Shown: in pieces, positions 22,747-61,358 of the stretch
Layout of the letters: each line of letters begins with the position of its first letter
Position numbering within the stretch: the first letter of the stretch is position 1
Assembly: GCA_035640355.1 (NCBI GenBank)
Contig: DASQWI010000019.1
Coordinates: 55,222 to 119,221, forward strand
Length of the DNA: 64,000 nt
Direction of reading: 5' to 3'
Origin: Actinomycetota bacterium
GTDB taxonomy: Bacteria > Actinomycetota > UBA4738 > HRBIN12
Translations under genes and position numbers: made by a program
The notes under the pieces: model-generated
Told to the model about the DNA's origin: nothing
The model's database searches: none
What the model saw: only the letters and a program-made list of their open reading frames with translations

Positions 22747-22875
22747 TGGGTCGGACCGTGCTCGCCCCCACCCCCGGCCCGAGGGCAGCGCCCGAAGTAT
22801 AGCGACGGCGTTGCGCTCGAACCGGGGGAGAGGTCGGCGTCTGGCTTCAGATCATGAGAACTGCTGCCGATGCCT

Positions 22876-23373: not shown

Positions 23374-23503
23374 CGGCGGACGCTAGCGCGCAGCGCCGAC
23401 GAAGCTCGGTGCTAGGTCATCCGGCCTACGAAACGTCCGATCGGACCATTGACCGGGCGCTCGCCCCTGCCGATGCTTCTCCGAGAAGACAAAGGAGGCT
23501 CGT

Positions 23504-31979: not shown

Positions 31980-32187
31980 AATCTGCCTCCTGACGGGTCG
32001 CCGGACCAATGCATTTGCTGTCCCCCGTCCGGGCGACCGGAGGATGGCCGAAGAAGTCTCCCGGCGGTAGCGCTCGCTGTCAACTGAGGCGTGCCTGAGG
32101 CGAGAGGCAAATCCACCGCACGTCCCGCAGTTGGGGGATGACTGTGGAAGGGCAATCGAGCCAGCAGCTGACAAGGCGAGCGAACAG

Positions 32188-44346: not shown

Positions 44347-44871
44347 GTGAGCGAGCAAACCAAGCGGCGCATCGATCGGATCCGCGACCAGGGGTACGTT
44401 CGTAGACTCGACGCACTGTCGATCGACGAGCTCCGCGCCCGGCGCGACGAGTGCCTGGCCGAGCGCGAGTATCTATCCCTCCTCCGGCGTCTCGTCCAGG
44501 GACGCGCTGAGATCCTGAAGGCGGAGATCGAGCGGCGCGGCTCGGGCGGCGGCGTGCCGATCGTCGAACGCCTGTCGGAGATCCTCTCCGGCGAGCCACA
44601 AGGCCCGTCGCGGGGGGAGGCCCTCCGAGTGGGTATTCCCGAGGAGGAGATGCTCCTGGCGAGGCGCCGTGTGGAGCGTCTCGTGACCGATGCGGGCCTC
44701 TCCGATCCCGGCGCACTCGACGACGCCAGCCTCGAATCGGCGGCGGAGATGCTCGCTGAAGAGGAGCGCACCGTCTCCGAGGAGCGGAACGACGTCCTCG
44801 CCGCCCTCGACGCGCTCCAGGATGAGCTCAAGCGCCGGTACAAGGAGGATCCGTCTCTGGTGCTCGCATGA
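44347..44871 (+). CDS. RsiG-like helical protein (candidate c-di-GMP-binding anti-sigma factor)
   Basis: 174 aa. LSIDELRARRDECLAEREYLSLLRRLVQGRAEILKAEIERR resembles the RsiG signature as I remember it. Two near-matches to E-x3-S-x2-R-x3-Q-x3-D. Confidence 0.5.
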   Translation: MSEQTKRRIDRIRDQGYVRRLDALSIDELRARRDECLAEREYLSLLRRLVQGRAEILKAEIERRGSGGGVPIVERLSEILSGEPQGPSRGEALRVGIPEEEMLLARRRVERLVTDAGLSDPGALDDASLESAAEMLAEEERTVSEERNDVLAALDALQDELKRRYKEDPSLVLA

Positions 44872-45046
44872 CGCCCGGCGCGTCCCCCGTCCGGGGGAGG
44901 GGGCGCAGGCCGATCGTCGGAACCCTCGTTGCCGGCGGCGGCCTCCCACGGGGACGTGGCGTTTCGCCCGCGAGACCTATGGACCGCGCCGCGTGGGGAC
45001 GCCACCCTTGACCGGTCCTCGGCCCAAAGGGGGCCGACCAGATGTC

Positions 45047-45826
45047 ATGAACGAGGCGATGTCCTTCCCCGTAGCGGGTCTGACAGCGGCGGCGCCCCCC
45101 GACGCCGAGATGCAGGCGATCCACCAACAGCTAGCCGTGTTCGCCCAAGAGCTCGGGACGCTGTACCGGCTGGAGCGATCTCGGAGCGCCGAGCTCGAGA
45201 TCGTCCTGGCCAGCCTGCAGCAGACGTACATCGCGACGATGAAGTCGCTTGCGCAAGTGATCGAGGCGAAGGACCGAACGACCCGCGGTCATCTGGAACG
45301 CACCCAGGCGTACGGCCTCGCCCTGACGAAGCGGATCGATGGCGACCTCGCGCGTTCACCAACTCTGGGCTACGGGTTCTTCCTCCACGACGTCGGGAAG
45401 GTGGGCATCCCCGAGCACATCCTGTGCAAGACGGGCCCGCTCAGCGTCTCCGAGTGGGACGTCATGAGAACGCACCCTGTGATCGGCGAGCAGATCGTCG
45501 CCCCAATGGCCTTCCTCACGACGACCGTCGAGTTGATCCGTCACCATCACGAGCGGTTCGACGGCTCGGGATATCCCGACGGGCTTCGAGGCGACGACAT
45601 TCCCCTGTCGGCGCGGATCTTCGCGGTCGCAGATTCCTTCGACGCGATGACGAGCGACCGGCCCTACCGGGGATCGATGGGGATCGAGCGCGCGCTCGGC
45701 GAGATACGAGCCGGATCCGGCTCGCAGTTCGACCCTGCGGTCGTCGGCGTGTTCGTGGACATGATCGGTCGCGGCGCCGACGAGGACGAGCCCGAGCTCG
45801 CGGACGCGCTTCGCCACGCCTGCTGA
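45047..45826 (+). CDS. HD-GYP domain phosphodiesterase
   Basis: FLHDVGKVGIP (HD) and HHERFDGSGYPDGL (GYP). ATG at 45047. The upstream part of the 378-aa ORF is Arg/Pro-rich. Confidence 0.88.
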   Translation: MNEAMSFPVAGLTAAAPPDAEMQAIHQQLAVFAQELGTLYRLERSRSAELEIVLASLQQTYIATMKSLAQVIEAKDRTTRGHLERTQAYGLALTKRIDGDLARSPTLGYGFFLHDVGKVGIPEHILCKTGPLSVSEWDVMRTHPVIGEQIVAPMAFLTTTVELIRHHHERFDGSGYPDGLRGDDIPLSARIFAVADSFDAMTSDRPYRGSMGIERALGEIRAGSGSQFDPAVVGVFVDMIGRGADEDEPELADALRHAC

Positions 45827-45869
45827 CGGTCCTCGCCTCTGGCGGCAGGAGGTTCGTCTCCCCGTCCGT

Positions 45870-46874
45870 GTGGCTACGCTTGTGCGCGTGCCCTCGCCGG
45901 TTCCGCTCGTTCGCGTCGTTCGTTCCGGCCTCGAAGAGAGTGTGCATGTCGGCCACGTCGCGGTGTGCGATTCGCATGGGCAGTTGATCGCGGCGATGGG
46001 CGATCCCGATCGGCTCGTCTTCGCCCGGTCGTCGATGAAACCGATCCAGGCATCGGTTTCGCTCGGTCGGATCGGTGCCGACCTCCCCGACGAGCTCATT
46101 GCGATCAGCGCGGCGTCGCACCACGCCGAACCGCGCCATCTCAGCGCGGTCCGGCGGTTGCTCCGGGCGGGCGGAGTGACGCAGTCGGCGCTTCGATGTC
46201 CGCCCGCGCTTCCGGCGCATGCTGACGACATATCTCGGACCGGTGCGAGACGCCGACGCATCTTCTACAACTGCTCGGGCAAGCACGCCGCAATGCTCGG
46301 CGCATGCGCGGCCACGGCGTGGCCGCTGGAGTCGTACGTCGAGCGAGATCACCCGCTGCAGCGGGAGATCGAGAAGGCCGTCGTTCGGGCGACGGACGTG
46401 CAGGACCCGACGATAGGCGTCGATGGATGTGGCGTACCCGTCTTCGGCCTCCCGCTGCGGGCGATGGCGACGGCCTTTGCTCGGCTCACGCGACCTGAGC
46501 GGCTCGGGCCGCTCGCCTCGAACGCGGAACGCGTCGTCGCCGCAATGCGCGCCCGTCCGTTCCTGATCGCCGGGACAAACGGGGCTGACACGGTGGTGAT
46601 GGGGGCCGCGCGCGGCGTCGTATGCAAGTACGGCGCGGAAGCGCTTCACTGCGCGGGAATCCTCGAGCAGGGGATCGGCGTCGCGGTGAAGATCGCGGAC
46701 GGGGGAGAGCGTGCAGCGGGACCGGCGCTCGTGCGAGCTCTCACCCTCCTCGAGGCGTTGACGCCCGACGAGCGTGAGAGGCTCCAGCCGATCGCGCGGC
46801 GCCCAGTTCTCGGGGGCTCGCGGCCGGTCGGGGAGATGGTCGCGGACTACCGGCTGTCGCGCCATCGCCGCTGA
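45870..46874 (+). CDS. asparaginase (Asparaginase_II / Rhizobium-type family)
   Basis: 334 aa. ..ESVH.G.V.V.D..G......GDP....F.RSS.KP.QA... and CSGKHAAML motifs as I recall for this family. Confidence 0.8.
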   Translation: MATLVRVPSPVPLVRVVRSGLEESVHVGHVAVCDSHGQLIAAMGDPDRLVFARSSMKPIQASVSLGRIGADLPDELIAISAASHHAEPRHLSAVRRLLRAGGVTQSALRCPPALPAHADDISRTGARRRRIFYNCSGKHAAMLGACAATAWPLESYVERDHPLQREIEKAVVRATDVQDPTIGVDGCGVPVFGLPLRAMATAFARLTRPERLGPLASNAERVVAAMRARPFLIAGTNGADTVVMGAARGVVCKYGAEALHCAGILEQGIGVAVKIADGGERAAGPALVRALTLLEALTPDERERLQPIARRPVLGGSRPVGEMVADYRLSRHRR

Positions 46875-46923
46875 ACCGTAGTGCAACTGCAACGATGTCG
46901 GCTCTCCCGAGTACCATTCCTCG

Positions 46924-48195
46924 ATGGCCCACGCACGGATGACCGCTGGCGCACGCCCGCGCGTCGCGGTCGTCAGCGTTCACACCTCCCCGCTCGACCA
47001 GCCCGGAACGGGCGACTCGGGCGGCATGAACGTGTTCATCAGAGCCGCGGCCGAGCGGGTGGCGGCGAGGGGTGTCGACGTCGACGTCTTCACGCGATGC
47101 CGCGGACATGACCTTCCCGAGGTGCAGCCGCTCGCGGGACGGTCGAGGCTCATCACCGTCAAGGCCGGACCCTGCGCGCCGGTCCCCAAGGACGAACTCC
47201 AGCGGTACGCGGGCGAGTTCCTGGGTGGCATGCTCGGCCGCGAACGGCTCGAACGCAGGCGCTACGACCTCGTCCACACGCACTACTGGGTTTCAGGCTG
47301 GGTCGGCCGGAGCACGAAGGACATCTGGGATGTGCCGCTCGTCGCGTCGTTCCACACCCTCGGCAAGGTGAAGAACGCCTCGCTCGCGCCCGGCGACGCG
47401 CGGGAGCCCTCCGCGCGGCTCGCCGGCGAAGAACGCGTCATCGCCGAAGCGGACCGTCTCGTCGCGGCAACACCCAGCGAGGCGTCACAGCTCGTCGGCC
47501 TGTACGGGGCCGATCCGGACATGATCCGCCTCGTGCCACCTGGCGTGGATCACGCGCTATTCCATCCCAGGCCACGCGACGCGGCGAGGGAACGTCTGCA
47601 CCTGACCGGAGTTCGGCTCGCGCTGTTCGTCGGGCGTCTCCAGGCGCACAAGGGTCCCGACCTCGCCGTTCGAGCGGTAGCCGAAGCCGTAGCCCGAGAT
47701 CCGGCCGCCACCGGAGACGTCGTGCTCGGCGTCGTCGGTGGTCCGAGCGGGTCGGGGCACGGCGTCGACGTCGCGCGCCTGCTCGACCTCGCAACGGCGC
47801 TTGGGATTGGCGATCGCGTGGTGTTCTTCCCTCCGCAGTCGCAGACGCGTCTGGCGGACTTCTATTCGGCGGCCGAGATGGTGCTCGTCCCGTCGCGATC
47901 CGAGTCGTTCGGACTCGTCGCGCTCGAGGCACAAGCGAGCGGGATCCCCGTCGTGGCCGCGGCCGTCGGGGGGCTCCGCTACGTCGTCGAGGACGGCGTG
48001 ACCGGATTCCTGGTCGACGGCCACGACCCCGTCGATCACGCCGAACGGATCATCGAGCTTCTCCGCGACCGAACGGAGGCCGAGCGTATGGGACGAGCCG
48101 CCGTCGAGCGGTCCATGCAGTTCTCGTGGGACGCCACCGCCGTCGAGCTTCTCGGCGTGTATCGCGAGCTGATCGACGTCGAGGCCGCGGCGTAA
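46924..48195 (+). CDS. mshA: D-inositol-3-phosphate glycosyltransferase (mycothiol biosynthesis)
   Basis: VAVVSVHTSPLDQPGTGDSGGMNVF is the characteristic MshA N-terminus. GT4 C-terminal ESFGLVALEAQASG is present. Confidence 0.9.
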   Translation: MAHARMTAGARPRVAVVSVHTSPLDQPGTGDSGGMNVFIRAAAERVAARGVDVDVFTRCRGHDLPEVQPLAGRSRLITVKAGPCAPVPKDELQRYAGEFLGGMLGRERLERRRYDLVHTHYWVSGWVGRSTKDIWDVPLVASFHTLGKVKNASLAPGDAREPSARLAGEERVIAEADRLVAATPSEASQLVGLYGADPDMIRLVPPGVDHALFHPRPRDAARERLHLTGVRLALFVGRLQAHKGPDLAVRAVAEAVARDPAATGDVVLGVVGGPSGSGHGVDVARLLDLATALGIGDRVVFFPPQSQTRLADFYSAAEMVLVPSRSESFGLVALEAQASGIPVVAAAVGGLRYVVEDGVTGFLVDGHDPVDHAERIIELLRDRTEAERMGRAAVERSMQFSWDATAVELLGVYRELIDVEAAA

Positions 48196-48371
48196 CGCGT
48201 TCTGAGTCACACGTCCTTCGAGCGCGCTGGGTGGTCTCGAAAAGGATGTCTCCGGAACACTTGCGCCGCAACACGTTCAAGCTCTTCGTCGCGTGCCGTT
48301 CAACATCTTGTCACTCTTTGTCTCAATCGATCTACCTGCGCATATGCGGTATGACCAGCACCTTCTCAAGG

Positions 48372-48400
48372 TTGACCCCGTCTGGGGCCGCCTATACATT
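48372..48400 (+). promoter_or_regulatory. sigma-70-like promoter of the candidate RNA
   Basis: TTGACC (48372-48377), 17-bp spacer, TACATT (48395-48400), in an unusually AT-rich stretch. Confidence 0.4.
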
Positions 48401-48405
48401 TCGCG

Positions 48406-48690
48406 TCGCTCCGAGCAGCCGGAGCGGCCGAGTCAGGGAACCGAAGTCGGGACCCCTGGGAAAGCCGTAAGGACAACTGGGCGCATCTGTCACGTACGGT
48501 CGGGAGAGCTAACTGGCTGTGCTGGCGGAGAGGCTCGGGAGTCCCCAAAGCCCAACGAAAGGGTCTACGGCCAGGAAACCGAGACGGCCGTGAGAGGTTG
48601 CTCGGGGCACTCGAGCCCGAGGGGCTGAGGGTGGCTGGAGACTTCGGTTTCCGGCGAGCCCGAGGTCCCTCGGGTTCTTTCGTTTCTGTC
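48406..48690 (+). ncRNA. candidate structured RNA / long leader of unknown class
   Basis: No credible ORF. Six hand-drawn hairpins (see finding), one with a UUCG tetraloop. Bounded by the promoter-like element and a terminator-like stem plus T tract. Confidence 0.4.
48657..48690 (+). terminator. intrinsic-terminator-like hairpin
   Basis: AGCCCGAGG-tc-CCTCGGGTT followed by CTTTCGTTTCTG. Confidence 0.5.
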
Positions 48691-48751
48691 GGCCCGCACG
48701 TCCGAACCACTCCTTGTCCGGCTTCGGTACCGCCGCTACGGTTGCGCCGCC

Positions 48752-49393
48752 ATGGCCACCCGACAGGGGTCTTCGGACGCGCAGACCAAACGCGGGCTGA
48801 TCGTCGAGGTGGCCATGCGGCATTTTGCCGAGCACGGCTACCGGGGTGCGCGCGTCGAGGACATCGCGGCCGAGGTGGGCGTGGCCAAGGGCACCGTCTT
48901 CCTTCACTTCGGAACCAAGGAAGGGCTGTTCCTCGCGGCGTTCGAACGCGCGGTGAGCGAGCTGCCCGCATGGCTGGATGCACCGCAGGACGTGATCGAT
49001 CGGGGATTCTGGGCGGTTTTCGATTACTGGATCGACCTCACGGAACAGTCGCTGAGCGACGCGTGGGTACCGAACCGGGTGGCCATGATCGGCCGCCATG
49101 ACACCGGTCTCGGCCTCCGTCGACCGATCGACCGACTGATGCGAAGCGAGGACCCCTACGGAACGCTCGACTTCGTCGAGTTCGGGATCCGGCGCGGAGA
49201 GGTGCGCGACGACGTCGACCCCGACATGATCGCCACGGTCCTCGACTGGGTCGCCGAACGGTTCCAGGACGCGCTTGCGAGCGAGGAGCTCGACCCCGGC
49301 TTGGTCCACCGGAAGCCATTCCTCCCCGAACGCCGCAACGTTCGGATCCGCGAGTTCATCGAGGTCCTTCGGAGCGGCATCGCCACCGGATAG
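48752..49393 (+). CDS. TetR/AcrR-family transcriptional regulator
   Basis: 213 aa. N-terminal HTH ..FAEHGYRGARVEDIAAEVGVAKGTVFLHFGTKEGL. Confidence 0.9.
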   Translation: MATRQGSSDAQTKRGLIVEVAMRHFAEHGYRGARVEDIAAEVGVAKGTVFLHFGTKEGLFLAAFERAVSELPAWLDAPQDVIDRGFWAVFDYWIDLTEQSLSDAWVPNRVAMIGRHDTGLGLRRPIDRLMRSEDPYGTLDFVEFGIRRGEVRDDVDPDMIATVLDWVAERFQDALASEELDPGLVHRKPFLPERRNVRIREFIEVLRSGIATG

Positions 49394-49483
49394 CGGGCGA
49401 GGCTCGACGGCGACGCATCCGGCTGCGAACATGGTCGCCCCGTCCGCCAGGGATGGGGACCGATCCCCTCGGGAGACTGGCAG

Positions 49484-50314
49484 TTGGACGACCGGACGGT
49501 GGCGTTCCTCGGCGGCGGCCGCATGGGCGAGGCGCTCATTTCGGGGCTGATCCGCTCGCGCGGGCGCACTCCGGACGAGATCGTGGTCACGGCTCGGCGC
49601 GAGGAGCGAGCGCGCGAGCTCGCCGAACGGCACGGGGTTTCCGCGACCTTGTCCAACCCGGACGCCGTCGAACGCGCGAAGACGCTCGTCCTGATGGTCA
49701 AGCCGCAGGACATGGAGGCGCTCCTCGAACAGATCGCGGACTCGGTGACGTCCGACCACCTGGTGGTGAGCTTCGCGGCGGGCATCCGGACGTCGTTCGT
49801 GGAGAGGCATCTCACCGAGATGGTTCCCGTCGTTCGAGTGATGTCGAACGTCGCCGTGCTCGTCGACGAGGCGATGTCCGTCGTCGCCGCCGGCCAACAC
49901 GCGGAGGACAAGCACCTCGCGGTGGCCGAGGAGCTCCTCGGTTACGTGGGCAGGGTGCTGCGCCTGAAGGAGACGCACCTCGACGCGATCACCGCGACCA
50001 GCGGCAGCGGTCCCGCGTACTTCTTCTTGCTCGCCGAGGCGATGATCGAGGCCTGCATCCTTCTCGGACTCTCGCGCGACGTGGCCACCGAGCTCATCAT
50101 CCAGACCATGCTGGGCTCGGCCAAGATGCTTCGCGACACCGGGAAGCACCCGGTCGAGCTTCGCGAGATGGTGACGTCACCGGGCGGAACGACGATCGCC
50201 GCGATCCGACATCTCGAGGAGGCCGGCGTCCGCGCCGCGTTCCTCAACGCGATCGACGCCGCCCGACACCGGAGCGCGGAGCTCGCCAAGGGCGGAGAGG
50301 AGGACGAGGGCTGA
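49484..50314 (+). CDS. proC: pyrroline-5-carboxylate reductase
   Basis: VAFLGGGRMGEAL Rossmann motif and ..VTSPGGTTIAA... Start is TTG 49484 or GTG 49499. Confidence 0.93.
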   Translation: MDDRTVAFLGGGRMGEALISGLIRSRGRTPDEIVVTARREERARELAERHGVSATLSNPDAVERAKTLVLMVKPQDMEALLEQIADSVTSDHLVVSFAAGIRTSFVERHLTEMVPVVRVMSNVAVLVDEAMSVVAAGQHAEDKHLAVAEELLGYVGRVLRLKETHLDAITATSGSGPAYFFLLAEAMIEACILLGLSRDVATELIIQTMLGSAKMLRDTGKHPVELREMVTSPGGTTIAAIRHLEEAGVRAAFLNAIDAARHRSAELAKGGEEDEG

Positions 50315-50436
50315 TGGGCCGCGGCGACCGAGCGAAGGTGCGCTGGGCGCACGACCGGGTACGCAGAAAGAAGGAAGCACGCAAGCGCGCCGCCGAGGAG
50401 CGGGGCAAGGCCCGCAAGGCAGCGCGCCGGAAGTAG
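50314..50436 (+). CDS. possible 40-aa highly basic peptide
   Basis: The ATG overlaps the proC stop (TGATG). MGRGDRAKVRWAHDRVRRKKEARKRAAEERGKARKAARRK. Too short to judge by composition. Confidence 0.35.
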   Translation: MGRGDRAKVRWAHDRVRRKKEARKRAAEERGKARKAARRK

Positions 50437-50448
50437 CTCCGACCCCAG

Positions 50449-51234
50449 TTAGCGGCGGCCCAGGCGGTTCCGCAGCACGCCGATCCCTTCGCCCTCGACC
50501 TCGACCTCGGCGCCCTGCCAGATCCGGTGTTCGAACCCGGGGATCTCAAACGGCGCCGACGCGAACGCGTCGCCCGGGCTCAATCGTTCTTGGCGTGACG
50601 CGGCGGCGACCTCTCGCAGCAACGACCGCGCCGTACCGTTGAGGTTTCCCTTGAGCCACTCGGTGCCGTCCACCCGAATGGTGACGAACGTGGTCTGCGG
50701 ATCGATCTCGTCCGCCGTCACCACGCTCGGGCCGATGGAGACCGGAACGCCCGCGGGCGTGGCGATCGGGTCTCCGGACGCGCTGAGCGCGAACCAGTCA
50801 GCCACGAGCGTGTAGCCGAATATCGCGTCCGGCACGTTCTCGGGTCGCAGCGCGTCGTCCACCGGCCGGCGCAGGACGGCGGCGATCTTCGGGTGAAACT
50901 CGAGCCAGCCGGCGCCCTCGGGCCACGGGATCTCGTCGTCGGGGCCAAACACGGGGCGATGGCTCTCGGCGGCGTCCGATGAGCGGAGCGTCGACGGAAC
51001 GACGGATGCGAGTAGCCGCGCTTCGTCGACGACGCAGGCCATCACGTCTGCCTCGTCGCGCTCAAGGGCGGCCCGGGCGGCATCGAGCACCGTCCCCCCG
51101 TTTCGCCGGACCAGACGCTCCATCGTGTCGGGGAAGGCGGGGTGTCCGACCAGCTCGGGCAGGTCGACGACCTTCCCCTGGAGAAGCGCTCCCAGTCGCC
51201 GGTGCCCCCTCCGGTCGAAGGTCACGAGCCTCAC
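50449..51234 (-). CDS. fumarylacetoacetate hydrolase (FAH) family protein
   Basis: 261 aa. N-terminus MRLVTFDRRG.RRLGAL..G.VVDL is typical of FAH-family N-terminal domains. The call is by overall resemblance. Confidence 0.75.
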   Translation of the reverse strand: MRLVTFDRRGHRRLGALLQGKVVDLPELVGHPAFPDTMERLVRRNGGTVLDAARAALERDEADVMACVVDEARLLASVVPSTLRSSDAAESHRPVFGPDDEIPWPEGAGWLEFHPKIAAVLRRPVDDALRPENVPDAIFGYTLVADWFALSASGDPIATPAGVPVSIGPSVVTADEIDPQTTFVTIRVDGTEWLKGNLNGTARSLLREVAAASRQERLSPGDAFASAPFEIPGFEHRIWQGAEVEVEGEGIGVLRNRLGRR

Positions 51235-51379
51235 AAAGGGAGGCCGATGGTACGCCCGGCTACCGTGCGATTCCAGGGTATCCGGGGGCTAGTAGGGGGA
51301 ACGTGTGGGGGATTTGGGGCCGTTCGCGCGGGGCGGCTACGATGCAAGTTCAGCATCCGCACTCCGGGAGGGCAATCCG

Positions 51380-52945
51380 ATGGCAGAGCAAGGTTTCCGG
51401 ATCACTTACGCCACGATGTCCGCGGACAACGAGGAGATGCACCGGCAGTACGAAAAGGGCATCGAGATCGCGCGCTCGTGGCTCGGCCAGAAGCACCCTC
51501 TGTACGTGAACGGAGAGGCGCGCGAGGGCTCCGGCTACAAGGAGGCCCGCTCGCCGATCGACGGTACGCTGATCGGCCACTTCGCCCAAGGGACCAGGGA
51601 GGACGTTCGTGACGCCGTCGCGTCCGCCAGCGCGGCGTTTCACGAGTGGGCCAATCGCCCCTGGCAGGACCGCGTGGCGATCATCCGCAAGGCCGCCGAT
51701 CTCATGACGGAGCAGCGGAACGAGCTTTCCGCCCTGATGGCCATGGAGGTCGGCAAGAACCGGCTCGAGGCGCTCGGCGACGTCGAGGAGTCCGCCGACC
51801 TGCTGCGGTGGAACGCCAATGAGATCGAGGACAACGACGGATTCCGCAGACCGATGCAGTCGCTCGGCTCGCCCGGGGAGTACTACGACGTCCTACGGCC
51901 GTACGGCGTGTGGGCGGTCATCAGCCCATTTAACTTCCCGATGGCGCTTGCCGCGGGCCCATCATCGGGCGCGCTCGTCGCCGGCAATACCGTGGTGTTC
52001 AAGCCGGCGCACATGGGCGTGTTCACCGGGCTGAAGTTGTACGAGGTCTACATGGCGGCCGGCGTTCCGAAGGGCGTCTTCCACTACCTGAGCGGCCCGG
52101 GCAGCGTCGTCGGCGACGAGATCGTGAACCACCCCGATGTCGACGGCATCACGTTCACCGGCTCGTACGAGGTCGGCATGGGGATCTACAAGAACTTCGC
52201 GAAGGACTACCCCAAGCCGGTCATCTGCGAGATGGGCGGGAAGAACCCCACGATCGTCACGGAGAAGGCCGATCTCGACAAGGCGACCGACGGCGTGATG
52301 CGTTCGGCGTTCGGCTTCGGTGGACAGAAGTGCTCGGCGAACTCGCGGGTGTACGTACACCGGAGCGTGCACGACGAGTTCGTCAGGATGCTCAAGGAGA
52401 AGTCGGAGAAGATCAAGATCGGCGACCCGCTCGAGAAGGAGAACTGGCTCGGACCGGTGATCGACGACAACGCCGTCGAGACGTTCGAGCGCGCGGCCGA
52501 GGAGGCCAAGAAGAACGGCACGATCGTCACGGGGGGCGAGCGGCTGAGCGACGGCGAGTACGCGAACGGCACCTTCGTTCAGCCGACGATCGCAGAGGTC
52601 CCGCTCGACTCATGGATCTGGAAGGAGGAGCTGTTCGTGCCGTTCGTCACGGTGGCGCCGTACGACGATCTGGACGAGGCGATCAAGCTCGCCAACGACA
52701 CCGAGTACGGCCTGACCGCAGGGTTCTACAGCGAGGATCGTGCCGAGATCGACAAGTGGCTGAGCTCGATCGAGGCGGGCGTCGTCTACGTCAACCGGCG
52801 CGCAGGCGCGACCACCGGCGCGTGGCCGGGGGTCCAGCCGTTCGGCGGCTGGAAGGGCTCCGGAACGAGCGGTAAAGCCGGCGGCGGCCCGTACTACGTT
52901 CAGCAGTACCTGCGCGAGCAGTCCCGGACGGTGATCGAGGAGTGA
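51380..52945 (+). CDS. aldehyde dehydrogenase, L-glutamate-gamma-semialdehyde (P5C) dehydrogenase type
   Basis: ATG at 51380 follows GGGAGG. FNFPMAL, EMGGKNP and GQKCSANSR catalytic motifs. About 520 aa, as in PruA/RocA-type enzymes. Confidence 0.88.
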   Translation: MAEQGFRITYATMSADNEEMHRQYEKGIEIARSWLGQKHPLYVNGEAREGSGYKEARSPIDGTLIGHFAQGTREDVRDAVASASAAFHEWANRPWQDRVAIIRKAADLMTEQRNELSALMAMEVGKNRLEALGDVEESADLLRWNANEIEDNDGFRRPMQSLGSPGEYYDVLRPYGVWAVISPFNFPMALAAGPSSGALVAGNTVVFKPAHMGVFTGLKLYEVYMAAGVPKGVFHYLSGPGSVVGDEIVNHPDVDGITFTGSYEVGMGIYKNFAKDYPKPVICEMGGKNPTIVTEKADLDKATDGVMRSAFGFGGQKCSANSRVYVHRSVHDEFVRMLKEKSEKIKIGDPLEKENWLGPVIDDNAVETFERAAEEAKKNGTIVTGGERLSDGEYANGTFVQPTIAEVPLDSWIWKEELFVPFVTVAPYDDLDEAIKLANDTEYGLTAGFYSEDRAEIDKWLSSIEAGVVYVNRRAGATTGAWPGVQPFGGWKGSGTSGKAGGGPYYVQQYLREQSRTVIEE

Positions 52946-54231
52946 GCAGCGTCACGGAGCTTGCCGATCTGGCGAACGCGCAGGCCCCGCGGCTCGTCAC
53001 CGACGTCCCGGGGCCCCAGGCGCGGGCGACGATCGAACGCGACCGCAAGGTCACCAGCCCTTCACTGCCACGCGTGTACGACTTCGTTCCCAAGCAGGGC
53101 GCCGGCTGCGTGGTCGAGGACGTCGACGGCAACCTGTTCCTCGACGTGAACGCCGGGATCGCGGTCACCTCGACCGGGCATTCGCACCCCCGAGTCGTCG
53201 AGGCGATCACCCGCCAGGCCGCCGAGCTGATCCACTACTCGGCGAGCGACTTCTACCTACCGATCTATTCGGAGCTGTGCGAGCAGCTCGCGCGCATCGC
53301 GCCGTTCTCGGACGCGGCGAAGACGTTCCTGACGAACTCGGGGACGGAGGCCGTCGAGGCGTCGATCAAGCTCGCGCGGTTCGCGACGGGCAGGCAGTAC
53401 GTCGTGGGGATGCTGAACGCGTTTCACGGGCGTTCCTACGGGTCGCTGTCCCTCACCACGAGCAAGGCGAAGTACCGGACTGGGTTCGCGCCGCTGCTCC
53501 CCGGCGTCGTTCACACGCACTTCGGCGACTTCGAGCACCTGGAGTCGGTGGTCTTCAAGCACTTGGTGGCGCCGGAGGAGGTCGCGGCCATCGTGGTGGA
53601 GCCGGTCCTCGGCGAGGGCGGATACGTGTTCCCGCCCGACGGATGGTTCCCTTACCTGCGCGACTTGTGCGACCGCTTCGGCATCGTGCTCGTGGCCGAC
53701 GAGGTGCAAAGCGGGATGGGCCGGACCGGCAAGATGTGGGCGATCGAGCACTTCGGCACCGAGCCCGACATCGTTGCCGCTGGCAAGGGGATCGCCAGCG
53801 GGATGCCGCTCGGGGCGATGATCGCGCGCGAAGGCCTCATGAAGTGGGACGCCGGCGCCCACGGCTCCACCTACGGTGGGAATCCGGTTTCGTGCGCGGC
53901 CGCGCTCGCCACGCTCGAGCTCCTCGAGGATGGTTTGATCGAGAACGCCCGCCAGGTGGGCGGTGTGCTCATCGACGGGCTCCGCGCGATGGCGAGCCGC
54001 CGTGCCGAGATGCGTGACGTTCGCGGCGTCGGCCTGATGATCGGCGTGCAGTTCAGCGATCACGAGCACATGGTCGCGGTCGAGGACGCCGCGTTCCGGC
54101 GCGGGCTGCTCGTGCTCGGCGCCGGCGAGGACGTTGTCCGTCTATCGCCTCCGCTCGTGCTCAAGCGCGATCAGGCCGAGACGGCGCTCGAGGTGTTCGA
54201 GGAAGCCGTCGCGGAGGTGGCGAAAGCCTAG
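52942..54231 (+). CDS. class-III aminotransferase (GabT / ornithine-aminotransferase-like)
   Basis: GTG overlaps the upstream stop. ADEVQSGMGRTGKMWA and the PLP-lysine context AAGKGIASGMPLG. Confidence 0.9.
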   Translation: MSSVTELADLANAQAPRLVTDVPGPQARATIERDRKVTSPSLPRVYDFVPKQGAGCVVEDVDGNLFLDVNAGIAVTSTGHSHPRVVEAITRQAAELIHYSASDFYLPIYSELCEQLARIAPFSDAAKTFLTNSGTEAVEASIKLARFATGRQYVVGMLNAFHGRSYGSLSLTTSKAKYRTGFAPLLPGVVHTHFGDFEHLESVVFKHLVAPEEVAAIVVEPVLGEGGYVFPPDGWFPYLRDLCDRFGIVLVADEVQSGMGRTGKMWAIEHFGTEPDIVAAGKGIASGMPLGAMIAREGLMKWDAGAHGSTYGGNPVSCAAALATLELLEDGLIENARQVGGVLIDGLRAMASRRAEMRDVRGVGLMIGVQFSDHEHMVAVEDAAFRRGLLVLGAGEDVVRLSPPLVLKRDQAETALEVFEEAVAEVAKA

Positions 54232-54256
54232 GCGGGACGACGGCCAGGACGTACGC

Positions 54257-55171
54257 ATGAGCAAGGTCGCGACGATGCGTGACGCCGTCGCGGAAATCGT
54301 CCGCGACGGCGACACCGTCGCGATCGAGGGATTCACTCACCTCATCTGTTTCGCGGCCGGGCACGAGATCATCCGCCAGCGGAAACGCGACCTGACGCTC
54401 GCGAGGATGACGCCCGATGTGATCTACGATCAGATGATCGGCGCGGGCGTCGCGCGCAAGCTCATCTTCTCGTGGCTGGGGAACCCGGGTGTCGGCTCGC
54501 TCCACGCCGTCCGCCGCCGGATCGAGCAAGCCGACCCGGAGCCGCTCGAGATCGAGGAATACTCGCACTTCGGCATGGTGTGCCGATACGTCGCCGGCGC
54601 GTCGAACCTTCCGTTCTTCCCGATCCGCTCGTATTACGAGAGCGACATCCCGCGAGTTACTCCCAACATCAAGCCGATGCGATCGCCCTTCGACGACGGA
54701 ACCGAGGTGTACGTCGTGCCGCCGTTGAAGCCAGACGTGACGATCGTGCACGCGCAGCGCGCCACGGCGGCCGGCGACACCCAGATCTGGGGACTTCTCG
54801 GCTGTCAGAAGGAGGCCGCGTTCGCCGCCGAGCGCGTGATCGTCGTGTGCGAGGAGGTCGTCGACGACGCCGTCGTCCGTCGGGATCCGAATCGAACGAT
54901 CATCCCCGGCATCGTGGTGGACGCCGTCGTCGAGCAGCCGCTCGCCTGCCACCCGAGCTACGCCCAGGGCTACTACGACCGAGACAACGCCTTCTACCTG
55001 GAATGGGAGAGGATCTCCAAGGATCCGGAGTCGCTCGACGGCTGGCTGAAGGAGTGGGTGTACGGCCTCGAGACGCACGCCGAGTACGTCGAGAAGCTGG
55101 GCGACCGACGGGATTCCCTCAAGCCGGGAACCGCGATGTCCGGTGAGGTGGACTACGGAGACTACTCGTGA
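54257..55171 (+). CDS. CoA-transferase subunit A (glutaconate/3-oxoacid family)
   Basis: MSKVATMRDAVAEIVRDGDTVAIEGF is the typical subunit-A N-terminus. 304 aa. Confidence 0.85.
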   Translation: MSKVATMRDAVAEIVRDGDTVAIEGFTHLICFAAGHEIIRQRKRDLTLARMTPDVIYDQMIGAGVARKLIFSWLGNPGVGSLHAVRRRIEQADPEPLEIEEYSHFGMVCRYVAGASNLPFFPIRSYYESDIPRVTPNIKPMRSPFDDGTEVYVVPPLKPDVTIVHAQRATAAGDTQIWGLLGCQKEAAFAAERVIVVCEEVVDDAVVRRDPNRTIIPGIVVDAVVEQPLACHPSYAQGYYDRDNAFYLEWERISKDPESLDGWLKEWVYGLETHAEYVEKLGDRRDSLKPGTAMSGEVDYGDYS

Positions 55172-55950
55172 GCACTGCTTCGCTATCGAACGGCCACACG
55201 AAGAACGAGATGATGATCGTCGCCAGCGCTCGAGCGCTGGCCGGCGAACGGAACTGTTTCGTCGGCGTCGGCCTGCCGAACATCGTCTGCAACCTCGCGC
55301 AGCGAACGGTCGCCCCCGAGCTTCAGCTCGTCTACGAGGCTGGCGTGTTCGGCGCCAGGCCGGCCCGGTTGCCGCTGTCGATCGGTGATCCGACGCTCGT
55401 GTCGGGCTCCACCGCGGTGACCTCCATGTTCGAGCTGTTCGCGTTCTATCTGCAGGCCGGGCTGATCGACGCGGCGTTCCTGGGCGGCGCTCAGATCGAT
55501 CGGTTCGGGAACCTCAACACCACCGTGATCGGCGAGTACGGCAACCCGAAGGTCCGATTGCCCGGCTCGGGCGGCGCCTGCGAGATCGCCATCCACGCCA
55601 GGAAGATCCTGGTCATCATGCGGCAGGCCCGCCGCTCGTTCGTCGAACGCCTCGACTTCCGAACGTCACCCGGTCACTCCGGTGACCCGGCGAACGATCG
55701 CGCGCGAGGCTGGTTCGGCAGCGGTCCGACGACCGTCGTGACCGACCTCGGCACCTACGGGTTCGACGAGCAGACCGGTGAGATGACGCTGCTCACCGTT
55801 CATCCGGGCGTGACCCTCGACGAGGTGGAGGAGAACACCGGCTGGAAGCCCCGCGTCTCGGAGTCGATCGGAGAGACGCCTCAGCCGACGGACGAGGAGC
55901 TGCGTCTCATCCGCACAGAGCTCGATCCCGAAGGCGTGTACACGTCGTGA
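55168..55950 (+). CDS. CoA-transferase subunit B
   Basis: The start overlaps the subunit A stop. ..LVYEAGVFG.. (candidate catalytic Glu) and ..GGAQIDRFGNLN.. motifs. Confidence 0.85.
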   Translation: MSTASLSNGHTKNEMMIVASARALAGERNCFVGVGLPNIVCNLAQRTVAPELQLVYEAGVFGARPARLPLSIGDPTLVSGSTAVTSMFELFAFYLQAGLIDAAFLGGAQIDRFGNLNTTVIGEYGNPKVRLPGSGGACEIAIHARKILVIMRQARRSFVERLDFRTSPGHSGDPANDRARGWFGSGPTTVVTDLGTYGFDEQTGEMTLLTVHPGVTLDEVEENTGWKPRVSESIGETPQPTDEELRLIRTELDPEGVYTS

Positions 55951-57263
55951 GCCACGTGTTCCCGCGCGTGCTGACGCGCGATCTGCCGCGTGCGGTGCGC
56001 GCCGAAGGCGTGTGGATCGAGGATGCCGACGGACGCCGCTACCTCGACGCGGCGGGCGGTGCCATCGTCGTGAGCGTCGGACACGGTGACGCCTCGCTCG
56101 TCGACGCCATGACCGAGCAAGCATCGCGAACCCAGTACGTCCACGGGACGGCGTTCACGACCGACGCTCTCGAGGACTACGCCGACGACGTCGCGTCGGT
56201 GTTGCCGCTCGACGACGCGCGTATCTACCCGGTCAGCGGCGGAAGCGAGGCGGTCGAGACGGCGCTCAAGCTCGCACGTTCGTACCACCTGGCACGCGGC
56301 GAGGACGAGCGGAAAGCGGTGATCGGTCGGCGTTCCTCGTACCACGGCAACACGATCGGAACGCTCGACGTCGGCGGCAAGCAGATCCTCCGCGCGCCGT
56401 ACGCGCCGTGGCTGGGGCGGTTCCGGCATGTCGATCCCGTGTATGAGTACCGCTGCGCGAATCCCGACCACCCGACCGGGTGCGGCTCGTGGCACGCCGA
56501 GCAACTCGATCGGACGATCAACGAGATCGGGACGTCCAACGTCGCCGCGTTCATCGCGGAACCCGTGGCGGGCGCGACGCTCGCCGCCGCCGTTCCCACG
56601 GACGACTATTGGCCCGCCGTCGTCGAGGTGTGCCGCCGGCACGGCGTCCTGGTCATCGCCGACGAGGTGATGACCGGATTCGGTCGGACCGGCCGATGGT
56701 TCGGGGTCGACCACTGGGACGTTCGGCCGGACATCGTCGTCGCCGGCAAGGGCTCGACGAGCGGGTACTGGCCGTTCGGCTTCGCCGCGTGCACCGGAGA
56801 CGTGTTCGAGGTCGTTCGCCGGAACGGCTTCATCCACGGGTTCACCTGGTCCCACAACGGAACCGGCGCGGCCGTGGCGCACGCAACGCTCCGCCGACTC
56901 CGGGACGACGGGCTGATCGAGGCGAGCGCGCGTCAGGGCGAACGGCTGCTCAAGGAGCTCACCTCGGCGCTCGACGACGAGGCGACCGTGGGAGACGTTC
57001 GGGGCGTCGGCCTGATGATCGGGATCGAGCTCGTCGCGGATCGCTCGTCCAGGGCGCCGTACCCGCGCTCACGCCAGACGACCGAACGCGTCCTCGTCGC
57101 GGCGAGGGAACGCGGGCTGCTGCTCTACTCGAGCGTTGGACACGTCGACGGTGACGGCGATCTGCTGATGCTCGGACCTCCGTTCACGATCACCGACGAG
57201 GAGAGCGGCCGCATCGTCGAGCACACCGCCGACGCAATCGCCGCCGTCGCCACGTCGGGGTGA
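55947..57263 (+). CDS. class-III (omega-) aminotransferase
   Basis: The start overlaps the upstream stop. ADEVMTGFGRTGRWF and AGKGSTSGYWP (PLP lysine). Confidence 0.9.
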   Translation: MSHVFPRVLTRDLPRAVRAEGVWIEDADGRRYLDAAGGAIVVSVGHGDASLVDAMTEQASRTQYVHGTAFTTDALEDYADDVASVLPLDDARIYPVSGGSEAVETALKLARSYHLARGEDERKAVIGRRSSYHGNTIGTLDVGGKQILRAPYAPWLGRFRHVDPVYEYRCANPDHPTGCGSWHAEQLDRTINEIGTSNVAAFIAEPVAGATLAAAVPTDDYWPAVVEVCRRHGVLVIADEVMTGFGRTGRWFGVDHWDVRPDIVVAGKGSTSGYWPFGFAACTGDVFEVVRRNGFIHGFTWSHNGTGAAVAHATLRRLRDDGLIEASARQGERLLKELTSALDDEATVGDVRGVGLMIGIELVADRSSRAPYPRSRQTTERVLVAARERGLLLYSSVGHVDGDGDLLMLGPPFTITDEESGRIVEHTADAIAAVATSG

Positions 57264-61216: not shown

Positions 61217-61256
61217 CCCCCCCAATGAGACAGGTATAAGACAGAGAGGAACGCGC

Positions 61257-61358
61257 GTGCCGTCGTTGATCAAGAAGCGCCGCAAGAAGATGCGGAAGAA
61301 GAAGCACAAGAAGCTGCTCAAGAAGACCCGCTGGCAGCGGCGGCAACAGGGCCGCTAG
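61257..61358 (+). CDS. ribosomal protein bS22 (33 aa)
   Basis: GTG at 61257 follows AGAGAGGA. (M)PSLIKKRRKKMRKKKHKKLLKKTRWQRRQQGR closely resembles mycobacterial bS22 ([33 protein letters not shown], from memory). Below the ORF-track length cutoff. Confidence 0.85.
   Translation: MPSLIKKRRKKMRKKKHKKLLKKTRWQRRQQGR

Follow-up and report, generated by a model that had tools for sequence, protein, structure and literature searches.

A probable gene for a structured non-coding RNA of an undescribed family between mshA and tetR in uncultured soil actinobacteria

The mshA–tetR locus and its transcription signals

The window (the whole analysed stretch of 64 000 nt from an Actinomycetota bacterium, contig DASQWI010000019.1) carries a gap of 556 bp at 48196-48751, between mshA and a gene of the TetR family (tetR). 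Asparaginase II, an HD-GYP response regulator, proC, FAA hydrolase, an aldehyde dehydrogenase and aminotransferases are encoded nearby. An earlier note on this DNA had described the gap as the largest non-coding one of the window. This holds roughly, but the gap ties in a crude GC3-phase scan with 22554-23194, which contains two tRNA genes. The unusual composition described in the same note was recovered: the GC3 bias of the flanking genes is absent from every codon phase over ~48154-48790, and the AT-richer 5' half includes the 100-nt segment with the lowest GC of all 64 kb (48276-48375, GC 0.49). Positions 48307-48687 very probably form a complete, independently transcribed gene for a structured non-coding RNA of ~280 nt, belonging to an undescribed family. 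The features of the locus are as follows.

46924-48195: mshA (TIGR03449 equivalog, score over the curated cutoff)
48307-48319, + strand: upstream block 1, CTTGTCACTCTTT, centred ~95 nt before the inferred transcription start
48332-48346, + strand: upstream block 2, CTACCTGCGCATATG, the first ACCTGCG repeat plus the core of a palindrome
48352-48360, + strand: upstream block 3, TGACCAGCA (family consensus TGACCTGCG)
48372-48400, + strand: sigma-A/sigma-70-type promoter, -35 TTGACC at 48372-48377, 17-nt spacer, -10 TACATT at 48395-48400
48405-48687, + strand: RNA of ~280 nt, ends placed from sequence signals
48714-48742, + strand: promoter-like element of tetR, TTGTCC at 48714-48719, 17 nt, TACGGT at 48737-48742, 9 nt before the start codon
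48752-49393: tetR (ATG at 48752)

The promoter picked out in the earlier note was the sole promoter-like match in 48000-48900, for a shuffle expectation of 0.0. Among 139 distinct promoter sequences from relatives, TTGAC of the -35 hexamer is invariant and the -10 positions TA...T are conserved; the spacer varies in sequence and is constant in length. The 5' end of the RNA would thus lie at 48405-48408, 5-8 nt past the -10 hexamer. Its 3' end is predicted within the U-tract 48678-48687, at ~48684-48687.

Block 1 is as conserved as the -35 hexamer in the same 139 sequences. Allowing at most one mismatch, it occurs 124 times in the 1.37 Mb of DNA fetched, 119 times in this promoter context, and a regulon search with it in that DNA matched essentially only this promoter. 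Block 1 is presumed to be a regulator-binding site. Its reading as a second sigma-A promoter (TTGTCA-17-TACCTG) was rejected, the -10 hexamer being without its final T. No convincing match to the RecA-NDp or BldD sites was seen either. Block 2 has ACC.GC and a central T conserved, and 46 of its 47 occurrences (at most one mismatch) are in the promoter context. The palindrome reported earlier, CGCATATGCG at 48339-48348, is present, but as a full palindrome it is unconserved in relatives; only its 5' part, GCGCATATG, is moderately conserved. Block 3 repeats the ACCTGCG of block 2 in direct orientation, ~21 bp away. The three blocks may be the sites for a transcription factor controlling synthesis of the RNA.

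An nhmmer profile search recovered every homologue present in the fetched DNA. Anchoring on mshA placed them downstream of this gene in 75/80 related genomes, and the remaining five contigs stop at mshA or just past it. Another 91 metagenome contigs carried homologues, 88 of them with the same neighbouring genes, and the pooled family comprised 137 distinct sequences. The order mshA, RNA, then tetR, proDH or proC was found in every related genome with enough sequence. A metagenome pattern scan gave identical synteny in every true match, 29 of the 120 matches being chance ones in coding DNA. Median nucleotide identity to the window was 88% for the RNA (44 relatives) vs 74% for mshA and 77% for tetR; the RNA exceeded mshA in 42/42 comparisons and tetR in 31/31. 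A search for cultured relatives with the TetR protein gave none: the matches listed (at least 120) all came from metagenomes or MAGs and were at least 75% identical. The hosts are many uncultured soil actinobacteria, and the RNA is a lineage-specific sRNA. This had been one of the readings of the earlier note, and it is supported. A plasmid or phage origin was rejected, PLSDB and INPHARED giving no blastn match. A literature search with the conserved strings of the RNA returned irrelevant matches only.

Comparative fold and size variants

The earlier proposal of an independent RNA locus in the gap, equipped with a promoter and a terminator of its own, is supported by the promoter match, a terminator match, conservation and covariation. 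The fold is strand-specific, with z = -6.65 on the + strand (0/200 shuffles as good) and z = 0.0 on the - strand. Covariation was checked on the mshA-downstream regions of relatives. It supported a fold of eleven helices, different from the one drawn by hand, in which 99.4% of the cells are paired and 28 of 88 pairs show compensatory changes. None of 500 shuffles was as good, and slid controls were 32-52% paired. The elements of the fold, all on the + strand, are listed below.

48408-48420 (GCUCCGAGCAGCC) with 48596-48608 (GGUUGCUCGGGGC), + strand: P1, closing helix
48424-48429 with 48586-48591, + strand: P2, closing helix
48430-48446 (GAGUCAGGGAACCGAAG), opposite side 48571-48585, + strand: large internal loop of 17 and 15 nt
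48447-48570, + strand: arm P3-P8, irregular, with a 9-nt terminal loop
48447-48455 with 48561-48570, + strand: P3, with compensatory changes
48457-48460 with 48551-48554, + strand: P4
48471-48474 with 48541-48544, + strand: P5
48477-48482 with 48533-48538, + strand: P6
48486-48489 with 48526-48529, + strand: P7
48491-48503 with 48513-48524, + strand: P8
48613-48687, + strand: 3' hairpin P9-P11 and U-tract, intrinsic terminator
48613-48626 with 48664-48677, + strand: P9
48629-48632 with 48658-48661, + strand: P10, covarying (C-G 28, G-C 11)
48634-48642 with 48647-48655, + strand: P11, covarying, with a UUCG loop at 48643-48646
48678-48687 (UUUCGUUUCU), + strand: U-tract

The closing helices P1 and P2 clamp the 5' end of the RNA to a segment 190 nt downstream and together amount to -43.7 kcal/mol. 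P1 (13 bp, 100% paired, two compensatory pairs) is conserved in sequence across all 137 distinct members. In P2, four of five pairs show double changes, e.g. C-G in 22 sequences and U-A in 19. The 5' side of the internal loop is nearly invariant in the short forms of the RNA, its GGAACCG is conserved family-wide, and the comparative analysis gave no convincing covarying partner for 48430-48446. The internal loops and bulges of arm P3-P8 (AAAGCCGUAA / CCAAAG, ACGAAA) are invariant. Compensatory changes affect 6/10 pairs of P5/P6 and 5/16 pairs of P7/P8, and four G-U pairs of P8 are invariant. No part of the family is more conserved in sequence than the 3' hairpin, whose predicted stability is -53.6 kcal/mol. 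The terminator-scan match falls inside this region; the long P9-P11 hairpin was preferred over the short stem given by the scan and by the earlier reading because P10 and P11 covary.

Seven helices had been paired by hand in the earlier note. All of their segments are complementary as written, but comparative support was obtained for one only, 48637-48642/48647-48652 with its UUCG loop, which is part of P11. Pairings 48408-48413/48420-48425, 48567-48572/48586-48591 and the terminal stem 48659-48665/48668-48674 are broken in many relatives and clash with the covarying helices P1, P2/P3 and P10; 48472-48475/48488-48491 is also broken in many relatives. Two others, 48465-48469/48495-48499 and 48601-48606/48616-48621, clash with the supported fold as well, and comparison is uninformative for them because their segments scarcely vary. 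The pairing of 48437-48448 with 48640-48652, which had been thought to compete with the UUCG hairpin, is 87% paired, yet 25/500 shuffles reach that percentage. Changes in the hairpin are compensated inside the hairpin itself. As a pseudoknot or switch, this pairing was rejected for want of convincing covariation.

Members of the family range from 264 to 522 nt, and the RNA of the window is a short form. The added nucleotides of the longer members form GNRA-capped hairpin modules, from one up to ten, within the invariant closing helix, where they replace or expand arm P3-P8; the interior thereby runs from ~190 to ~440 nt. Each module follows the pattern GGRA - 3-5 bp stem - GCAA/GCGA - stem - GRA, so that purine-rich GGRA/GRA segments flank the stem and each hairpin stands on a purine-rich, roughly symmetric internal loop. 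The loops are GCAA (113), GUAA (45), GCGA (35) and a few other GNRA. GNRA hairpins are enriched 5-8 fold over dinucleotide shuffles (6-10 observed vs a shuffle mean of 1.0-1.8), and their number scales with RNA length. An independent analysis of the long form found 27/101 pairs covarying; every module stem covaries and the loops are constant. The fold is rod-like in the short form and multibranched in the long ones. The window RNA has a single loop of GNRA type, GUAA at 48467-48470, which did not count as a GNRA hairpin in the scoring. All that the members of the family have in common is P1, the 3' hairpin and a part of the first loop and module, and the most distant forms have TACTAT after the hairpin in place of the U-tract. 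One variant of 231 nt (L116), seen in a single contig, has a 38-nt deletion that takes out one strand of P3-P6; it was treated as decay or an assembly error.

Relation to known RNA families

The earlier note had recognized no known RNA family, which agrees with the Rfam 15 search (4227 models): at gathering thresholds, the whole window gave only four tRNAs, all elsewhere. We take these models to cover 6S, Ms1, RNase P, tmRNA, SRP, Y-RNA-like RNAs, riboswitches and OLE/ROOL/GOLLD/raiA. At E <= 10, region 48100-48850 gave spurious matches only (archaeal snoRNA, miRNAs, lncRNA), with 17-22 bits vs cutoffs of 46-80, and all the eukaryotic and archaeal ones of this permissive mode had E >= 0.2. Of the long forms, L066 and L051 were searched, with no match or a single miRNA one (E 0.98). 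Ribosomal RNA mimicry was rejected: some words resemble 23S/16S, and a blastn search of every complete E. coli genome yielded only a 25-nt chance match in pepA. The family is fit for RNA family databases, by which thousands of soil metagenome contigs would lose an unannotated 'gap'.

The earlier note had compared the RNA to a 6S/Ms1-type rod. The short form is indeed rod-like, but the long forms are multibranched and neither the S. coelicolor Ms1 sequence used for comparison nor the synteny of Ms1 is matched, and the idea may hold as a functional analogy only. 6S RNA (SsrS) binds the sigma-70/sigma-A holoenzyme and mimics an open promoter; Actinobacteria are not known to have a canonical 6S RNA. 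The short form recalls 6S in its long, irregular rod-like shape, with a stable closing stem, a large internal loop of 17/15 nt resembling the 'central bubble' and a terminal arm. Unlike 6S, it measures ~280 nt vs ~185 nt (~215 nt without the 3' hairpin, set against a 6S rod of ~160-200 nt), its unpaired sequence is strongly conserved and its long forms are multibranched. The Rfam search, 6S models included, gave no 6S match at E <= 10.

The ornate orphan RNAs OLE, ROOL, GOLLD and raiA combine dense covarying helices, many GNRA tetraloops and invariant junctions, and were found by comparative genomics. The present family resembles them in the density of covarying helices, in its GNRA tetraloops, in its invariant junction nucleotides and in the way it was discovered. 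It differs by the absence of an Rfam match, a smaller size (264-522 nt), another phylum-level distribution and a module number that differs among close relatives. With the CsrB/RsmZ sponges it shares an array of similar small hairpins, variable in number, on a stand-alone RNA ending in a terminator. Its loops are GNRA (GCAA/GCGA), unlike the A(N)GGA loops bound by CsrA, the GGA-like purines being in the flanks. CsrA is not known to be typical of Actinomycetota.

Ms1 (Mycobacterium MTS2823/Ms1; Streptomyces scr3559) binds the RNA polymerase core (PMC9130861). Like the RNA described here, it is a stand-alone actinobacterial RNA with its own promoter (230-300 nt; PMC9130861), lineage-restricted and fixed in genomic position. 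In the fold of S. coelicolor Ms1, too, the 5' end pairs with a distant segment in a closing helix, and a terminator hairpin comes after it on the 3' side. With nhmmer, neither the short-form (A2) nor the long-form (A3) profile matched the RACE-verified S. coelicolor Ms1 at E <= 100; blastn gave chance words of 7-10 nt only. Rfam holds an Ms1 model (PMC9130861), and the search including it gave no match in 48100-48850 at E <= 10. Ms1 synteny comprises a HAD-IB hydrolase (phosphoserine-phosphatase-like) to one side, an oxidoreductase to the other and, one gene away, 6C RNA (PMC9130861, PMC6582537; the latter mentions 6C). The flanks here are unlike it (mshA and tetR), and no 6C RNA was detected in the 64 kb by Rfam. 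GNRA-module expansions, present here, are not described for Ms1.

CoRP of Corynebacterium glutamicum (516 nt) binds both RNAP core and holoenzyme, and occurs where 6S and Ms1 both escape detection (PMC11077062). It, too, is long, highly structured and confined to a genus or lineage of actinobacteria, and its case indicates that RNAs binding RNAP can differ in sequence as well as in shape (PMC11077062). By description it is set apart from the present RNA, being located between tRNA genes and cleaved into two fragments.

Function of the RNA

A stable, trans-acting and probably protein-binding RNA is the best reading of these data, held at close to even chances. Such an RNA would be made at a high level from its own start at ~48405-48408, terminate at ~48684-48687 and act in trans. 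The invariant loops and the conserved 3' hairpin could be protein-contact surfaces, which would make the RNA a protein-binding scaffold or a sequestering RNA. That it works by binding a protein is a serious possibility, if short of an even one. The unpaired segments are invariant, the 3' hairpin is conserved well beyond the needs of a terminator, and the repeated modules vary in number and are strongly enriched over shuffles. The GNRA-rich, ornate architecture also fits an RNA-only tertiary assembly or a ribozyme. RNA polymerase, by analogy with the unrelated, lineage-specific Ms1, CoRP and 6S, is the leading candidate for the bound protein, though on its own an unlikely one; the multibranched long forms, unlike 6S rods, argue against the analogy. 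Also rather unlikely is a scheme in which the RNA stands for a new class of modular bacterial RNA, where the clamp helix and its variable array of GNRA hairpins (1-10) would be the global protein-sequestering RNA of the lineage, with RNAP or another abundant protein as partner, gain and loss of modules tuning its capacity and a dedicated regulator acting at the three upstream blocks.

Actinobacteria carry unrelated, lineage-specific, abundant RNAP-binding RNAs (PMC9130861, PMC11077062), and one such RNA per species has been proposed (PMC11077062). Every major group studied so far has proved to have one of its own, Ms1 in Mycobacterium and Streptomyces and CoRP in Corynebacterium. The RNA of the window, deeply conserved in a widespread soil lineage and probably highly expressed, is a concrete candidate for another one, or for a protein-sponge RNA or an ornate RNA of a new kind. 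If its partner is RNAP, 6S, Ms1 and CoRP would be joined by a fourth solution unrelated to them. With 137 distinct sequences, a covariation-backed fold and a natural size series, it is ready for in vitro work.

An ornate RNA, i.e. a ribozyme or an RNA-only assembly (as is reported of OLE, ROOL and GOLLD) whose GNRA loops would dock into neighbouring purine-rich loops, is an improbable alternative. The enrichment of GNRA hairpins and their scaling with length would be expected of it, as would the purine-rich, roughly symmetric loop under each of them, the covarying module stems with constant loops, and the invariance of unpaired nucleotides and G-U pairs in the short form. The short form of the window has one GNRA-type loop only, however. 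Neither a tetraloop-receptor pair nor a candidate substrate or cleavage site was recognized, and the variable number of modules speaks against one fixed catalytic core.

The RNA could also be a trans-acting base-pairing sRNA using its conserved single-stranded loops as seeds against mRNA targets, to which we give a low probability. Actinobacterial sRNAs such as 6C pair through conserved loops in this way, and the RNA has its own promoter and terminator and invariant unpaired stretches, e.g. CCAAAGCCCAACGAAAGGG and GGGAACCGAAG. With ~280-520 nt, more than 60% of its bases in covarying helices and its 5' end locked in a 13-bp helix, it would be atypical of that class. Conservation in the short form spans nearly the whole molecule, with no single seed, and the putative seeds of the short form are missing from the long ones. 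The complementarity of GACCCCUG to tetR codons 5-7 (8 nt) is expected by chance and unconserved.

The earlier note had also considered a novel leader controlling tetR-proC. P1-P8 would then sense a ligand or protein, and the P9-P11 terminator would gate transcription of tetR, proDH or proC. The RNA is on the same strand as, and close to, one of these genes in nearly all loci. The 3' strand of P1 (CUCGGG) can pair with the 5' strand of P9 (CCCGAG) in the geometry customary for antiterminators, the sequence of each of the four P1/P9 strands is conserved, as expected for alternative helices, and the most distant forms have no clear U-tract. The downstream gene nevertheless appears to have its own promoter. 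In 133/142 distinct loci the start codon of this gene (tetR or proDH) has a TANNNT hexamer ahead of it, at 6-11 nt, often preceded by a TTGTYC -35 at 17 nt, and no upstream transcript is therefore needed. In the window, element 48714-48742 would act as this promoter, leaving tetR leaderless or with a very short leader; it is outside the RNA and marks the border of its transcription unit. The RNA is retained where tetR is absent, and one locus (L035) retains it although the next gene is convergent. No aptamer or sensor core is conserved, the interior being assembled afresh from repeated modules and running from ~190 to ~440 nt. Forcing the antiterminator fold costs +19 kcal/mol relative to the terminator conformation. 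Its candidate helix, 48601-48606/48616-48621, is without comparative support: it shows no compensatory change, and its sixth pair is lost in 33/45 sequences. P1 helices of known riboswitches are short and marginally stable; the stability of the closing helices and the terminator goes far beyond what ligand switching would allow. Given the gene's own TANNNT and the cost of the antiterminator, it is unlikely that the RNA is a tetR leader or riboswitch, and sensing and gating as outlined above has quite a small probability. Some cis effect by terminator read-through may occur, because tetR, proDH or proC nearly always follows on the same strand, at a terminator-to-start-codon distance of 15-190 nt (median 48).

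High-GC DNA yields many chance hairpins and long open frames, and several ORFs cross the gap. A protein-coding small ORF was rejected for lack of three-base periodicity and for many 1-nt indels: the variable columns of the RNA are spread over the three phases as 25/19/23 (chi-square p = 0.66), compared with 137/109/353 for mshA (p = 2e-39), and 12 of the 23 distinct gap events in the RNA alignment are 1 nt long. A chance hairpin-rich spacer or a short coding gene with no functional RNA, which would also have to account for the strand-specific folding energy, is vanishingly improbable and for practical purposes refuted by covariation surpassing all 500 shuffles, by the identity of the RNA exceeding that of its flanking genes and by the codon-phase data.

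Coding signal, promoter and terminator

Genes were assigned with Pfam and NCBIfam models. The region studied is composed as follows.

46924–48195: mshA (TIGR03449 equivalog, 471 bits; cutoff 462.5)
48196–48751: gap between mshA and the TetR-family gene
48714–48719 (TTGTCC) and 48737–48742 (TACGGT): promoter-like elements of tetR, 9 nt before the ATG
48752–49393: TetR-family gene (tetR), next 3' of the gap
49484–50314: proC (Pfam P5CR_dimer and F420_oxidored), the gene after tetR

Over approximately 48154–48790, no codon phase reached the GC3 seen in the genes on either side, as had been claimed for the gap in the earlier note. Its AT-rich 5' half contains the GC minimum among 100-nt windows of the 64 kb (48276–48375, 0.49 versus 0.68 overall). 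The gap is long, as claimed, but not unique in length: one comparable stretch without coding signal, 22554–23194, was found by a crude phase scan. It contains two tRNA genes (22579–22654 and 22673–22745) plus about 450 nt more. Further long stretches without periodicity in the same GC3-phase scan (23258–23734, 31681–32173 and 13596–13987) may be weakly biased genes or other non-coding elements. The second- and third-lowest GC windows, 61224–61323 (0.51) and 2108–2207 (0.53), could be further promoter or intergenic regions.

The palindrome, the TTGACC-17-TACATT element and all the complementary segments read by eye were present where the earlier note had placed them. TTGACC-17-TACATT was the sole promoter-like match in 48000–48900 (shuffle expectation 0.0), and a terminator-like hairpin with a T-tract was found at 48656–48687. 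The locus has its own promoter and terminator, as proposed. Over 139 distinct promoter regions, TTGACC and the TA...T of the -10 element were conserved 17 nt apart, with a spacer of variable sequence. CGCCUCGCUCC at the RNA start was also conserved, as were three upstream blocks, cTTGTCACTCTTT, ACCtGC and TGACCTGCG, of which the last two are direct repeats spaced by about 21 bp. The related DNA searched (1.37 Mb) contains 124 occurrences of the first block, 119 of them at the RNA promoter. Judged from sequence, transcription would start at 48405–48408, the 3' end of the RNA can be placed in the same provisional way, and a factor would bind the upstream blocks.

A conserved small ORF with a protein-level substitution pattern, named in the earlier note as evidence against an RNA, was not found. 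Variable columns of the RNA alignment were evenly distributed over the phases (25/19/23, p = 0.66) and 12 of 23 distinct gap events were single-nucleotide; the variable columns of mshA were distributed 137/109/353 (p = 2e-39).

Conservation and distribution

A scan anchored on MshA, with one genome per species, gave 80 loci and covers the mshA context. All came from MAGs of uncultured Actinomycetota, chiefly soil ones, and their MshA was 57–96% identical to that of the window. In 75 loci the gap sequence follows mshA in the same orientation; the remaining five contigs stop within mshA or shortly after it. The first 110 nt 3' of the mshA stop codon were not conserved. Conservation began abruptly at 48306 and stopped at the T-tract. 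Median identity to the window among 44 short-form (compact) relatives was 87.7% for the RNA, 74.0% for the mshA coding sequence and 77.1% for tetR; the RNA was more conserved than mshA in 42/42 comparisons and than tetR in 31/31.

Metagenomes were scanned with a pattern made of the 3' strand of helix P1 and the 3' hairpin, which is specific to P1/P9 and hence blind to diverged relatives. At least 120 contigs matched; among the matches listed, 91 were true members and 29 were chance matches in coding DNA. The neighbour could be seen for 88 of these 91, and the neighbourhood was always the same: asparaginase II - mshA - RNA - (tetR) - (proline dehydrogenase) - proC. A TetR protein search returned 1934 protein clusters at E <= 1e-20, and the 120 matches listed included no cultured host, all being from MAGs or metagenomes.

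The loci analysed contained 143 full-length RNA copies, corresponding to 137 distinct sequences (window added, 231-nt copy excluded). The excluded metagenome copy (L116, 2599–2843, minus strand) has a 38-nt deletion that takes out the 3' strands of P3–P6, and reflects either decay or misassembly.

Consensus fold and size classes

The plus strand of 48405–48690 folded at -162 kcal/mol (z = -6.65, 0/200 shuffles as good); the minus strand gave z = 0.0. A consensus of 45 short-form sequences was computed with RNAalifold and contains eleven helices, all on the plus strand.

48408–48420 with 48596–48608: P1, closing helix
48424–48429 with 48586–48591: P2, closing helix
48447 to 48570: P3–P8, long irregular arm
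48613–48677: P9–P11, 3' hairpin with a UUCG loop

Standard pairs filled 99.4% of 3957 cells, and changes on both sides were found in 28 of 88 pairs (130 cells). Column shuffles matched none of five measures in 500 trials. When partners were slid by 1–3 columns, pairing fell to 32–52% and double changes to 3–8 pairs. Covarying pairs include P2 (C-G 22 / U-A 19), P3 (G-C 24 / C-G 21 and C-G 37 / G-C 8), P5 (C-G 33 / G-C 10), P8 (U-A 30 / C-G 12) and P10 (C-G 28 / G-C 11). Because GGAC/GUCC of P5 covaries, GCCGUAAGG belongs to a conserved internal loop in the window form instead of making a free hairpin.

Covariation in relatives supports the eleven-helix fold. Among the seven helices drawn by hand in the earlier note, the UUCG hairpin alone agreed with the comparative fold. 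Four of the other six helices were broken at one position or more in 10–34 of the 45 sequences, and the remaining two show hardly any variation; overlap with covarying helices was seen for six of the seven. The proposed competing pairing 48437–48448/48640–48652 was complementary in 87% of cells, but 25/500 shuffles did as well, and variation in the hairpin was compensated within the hairpin, not by the upstream segment.

Several unpaired segments were essentially invariant in the 45 sequences: GAGUCAGGGAACCGAAG, AAAGCCGUAA opposite CCAAAG, the ACGAAA bulge and CCAGGAAACC.AGAC. Within P8 (48491–48524, an 11-bp helix), four G-U/U-G wobble pairs were invariant in 45/45. The invariant CCGUA (48465–48469) has an alternative partner in UACGG (48495–48499). 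The wobbles and the CCGUA-UACGG pairing may mark a site of specific recognition or a second conformation.

Copies per length class, with length counted from P1 through the terminator stem.
264–277 nt: 74
298 nt: 2
333 nt: 1
358–382 nt: 29
397 nt: 1
419–433 nt: 8
446–452 nt: 3
457–470 nt: 24
522 nt: 1

Common to the family are the promoter, P1, part of the first internal loop (GGAACCG), the first small hairpin (GCC-GYAA-GGC), the segment GAGGUUGCUYGGRGC and the whole 3' hairpin, whose sequence is better conserved in the family than that of any other part of the RNA. The extra length consists of hairpins with GNRA tetraloops (GCAA 113, GUAA 45 and GCGA 35 occurrences). Each module has a G+C stem of 3–5 bp with purine flanks, 5' GGRA and 3' GRA. 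Short forms contain 0–2 GNRA hairpins, usually 1; larger forms contain 5–6 (about 300–450 nt), 8 (397 nt), 8–9 (about 465 nt) or 10 (522 nt). In six long members, 6–10 were counted versus 1.0–1.8 (sd about 1) in dinucleotide shuffles. When 23 members about 465 nt long were aligned, the fold was multibranched with at least seven GNRA hairpins inside P1, and 27 of 101 pairs covaried, typically the second or third pair beneath an unchanged loop. The window copy is compact and its arm is a single rod.

Mode of action and the downstream gene

The RNA is conserved, structured, independently promoted and terminated, and modular in its interior, with loops and a 3' hairpin constrained at the sequence level. 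It is very probably a stand-alone structured RNA gene of a new family. The novelty claimed in the earlier note stood, as covariance searches with short and long forms matched no family of Rfam 15. Neither E. coli rRNA nor the plasmid and phage collections showed any similarity to it, and none of the papers searched contains the conserved strings.

Unpaired nucleotides that never vary, like conserved G-U pairs, typically mark contacts with protein or within a tertiary structure, and a variable count of near-identical modules is a hallmark of sequestering or scaffold RNAs. The RNA would be stable and trans-acting. It may act by binding a protein, a reading we hold tentatively because unpaired nucleotides and G-U pairs are invariant, the 3' hairpin is conserved in sequence and the modules vary in number. 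The terminator, conserved in sequence throughout the family, would do more than terminate. A self-organising or catalytic ornate RNA is unlikely, and a base-pairing sRNA is equally so.

For the protein partner, RNA polymerase is the leading candidate, by analogy only, and a doubtful one. One proposal is that every bacterial species carries a single abundant RNA associated with RNAP, and those of actinobacteria are mutually unrelated (PMC11077062). The obvious comparator is Ms1, which has a HAD-IB hydrolase and an oxidoreductase as neighbours and 6C RNA nearby (PMC9130861, PMC6582537). This defining synteny is absent around the window RNA, and the RACE-verified Ms1 of S. coelicolor, the sole Ms1 sequence compared, had no similarity to the profiles of either form. 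A 6S-like shape is seen in the short form only. CsrB-type sponges share the variable hairpin array but differ in the loop motif.

A cis leader of the downstream gene, proposed in the earlier note for tetR-proC, is unlikely. Some residual cis effect by read-through may occur, especially in the most distant forms, which have TACTAT in place of the U-tract. In 133 of the 142 distinct loci a TANNNT hexamer precedes the downstream start codon (that of tetR, or of proDH in loci lacking tetR) by 6–11 nt. It most often reads TACCGT (61), TAGCGT (19), TACGGT (18) or TACTAT (12), and TTGTYC frequently lies 17 nt upstream of it. This is a promoter layout for leaderless or near-leaderless mRNAs, common in actinobacteria, and suggests that tetR/proDH mRNAs would start just past the RNA terminator. 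The RNA is retained in several loci without tetR, and in L035 the gene that follows it is a convergent PAC2-family gene. Predicted energies were -43.7 kcal/mol for the P1/P2 duplex and -53.6 kcal/mol for the terminator hairpin; the only plausible antiterminator, when forced, cost +19 kcal/mol. On these grounds we regard the RNA as a transcription unit in its own right and not as a leader of tetR.

In compact loci the TANNNT hexamer is within 10–15 nt of the terminator stem. Three loci carry a tandem duplication of TGTACGGTTCGGGC, which includes the TACGGT hexamer 5' of proDH (L007 and L017, both at about 5245–5285, and L116, oriented, at about 8326–8365). In L050 (4173–4790) and L053 (4173–4778), mshA is separated from the RNA promoter by an extra ORF of about 200 aa and about 400 nt of unassigned sequence; in these two loci the 3' end of mshA also contains the 13-mer CTTGTCACTCTTT, probably by chance.

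The longest ORF 3' of tetR (49453–50436, 327 aa, ATG at 49453) matched no model of Pfam or NCBIfam; ProC, a clear pyrroline-5-carboxylate reductase, is encoded by an overlapping 276-aa ORF in another frame with a TTG start at 49484. In relatives a proline dehydrogenase gene is often inserted between tetR and proC. Most relatives keep the order HD-GYP-type response regulator, asparaginase II, mshA 5' of the RNA (window 44690–48195) and a convergent FAA-hydrolase-family gene on the 3' side (window region 50449–58408). Beyond the latter, the window encodes an aldehyde dehydrogenase, possibly a P5C dehydrogenase, two class-III aminotransferases, two CoA-transferase subunits and a deacetylase. The genes of 50449–58408 look like a proline/ornithine-type catabolic cluster, which the TetR regulator may control.
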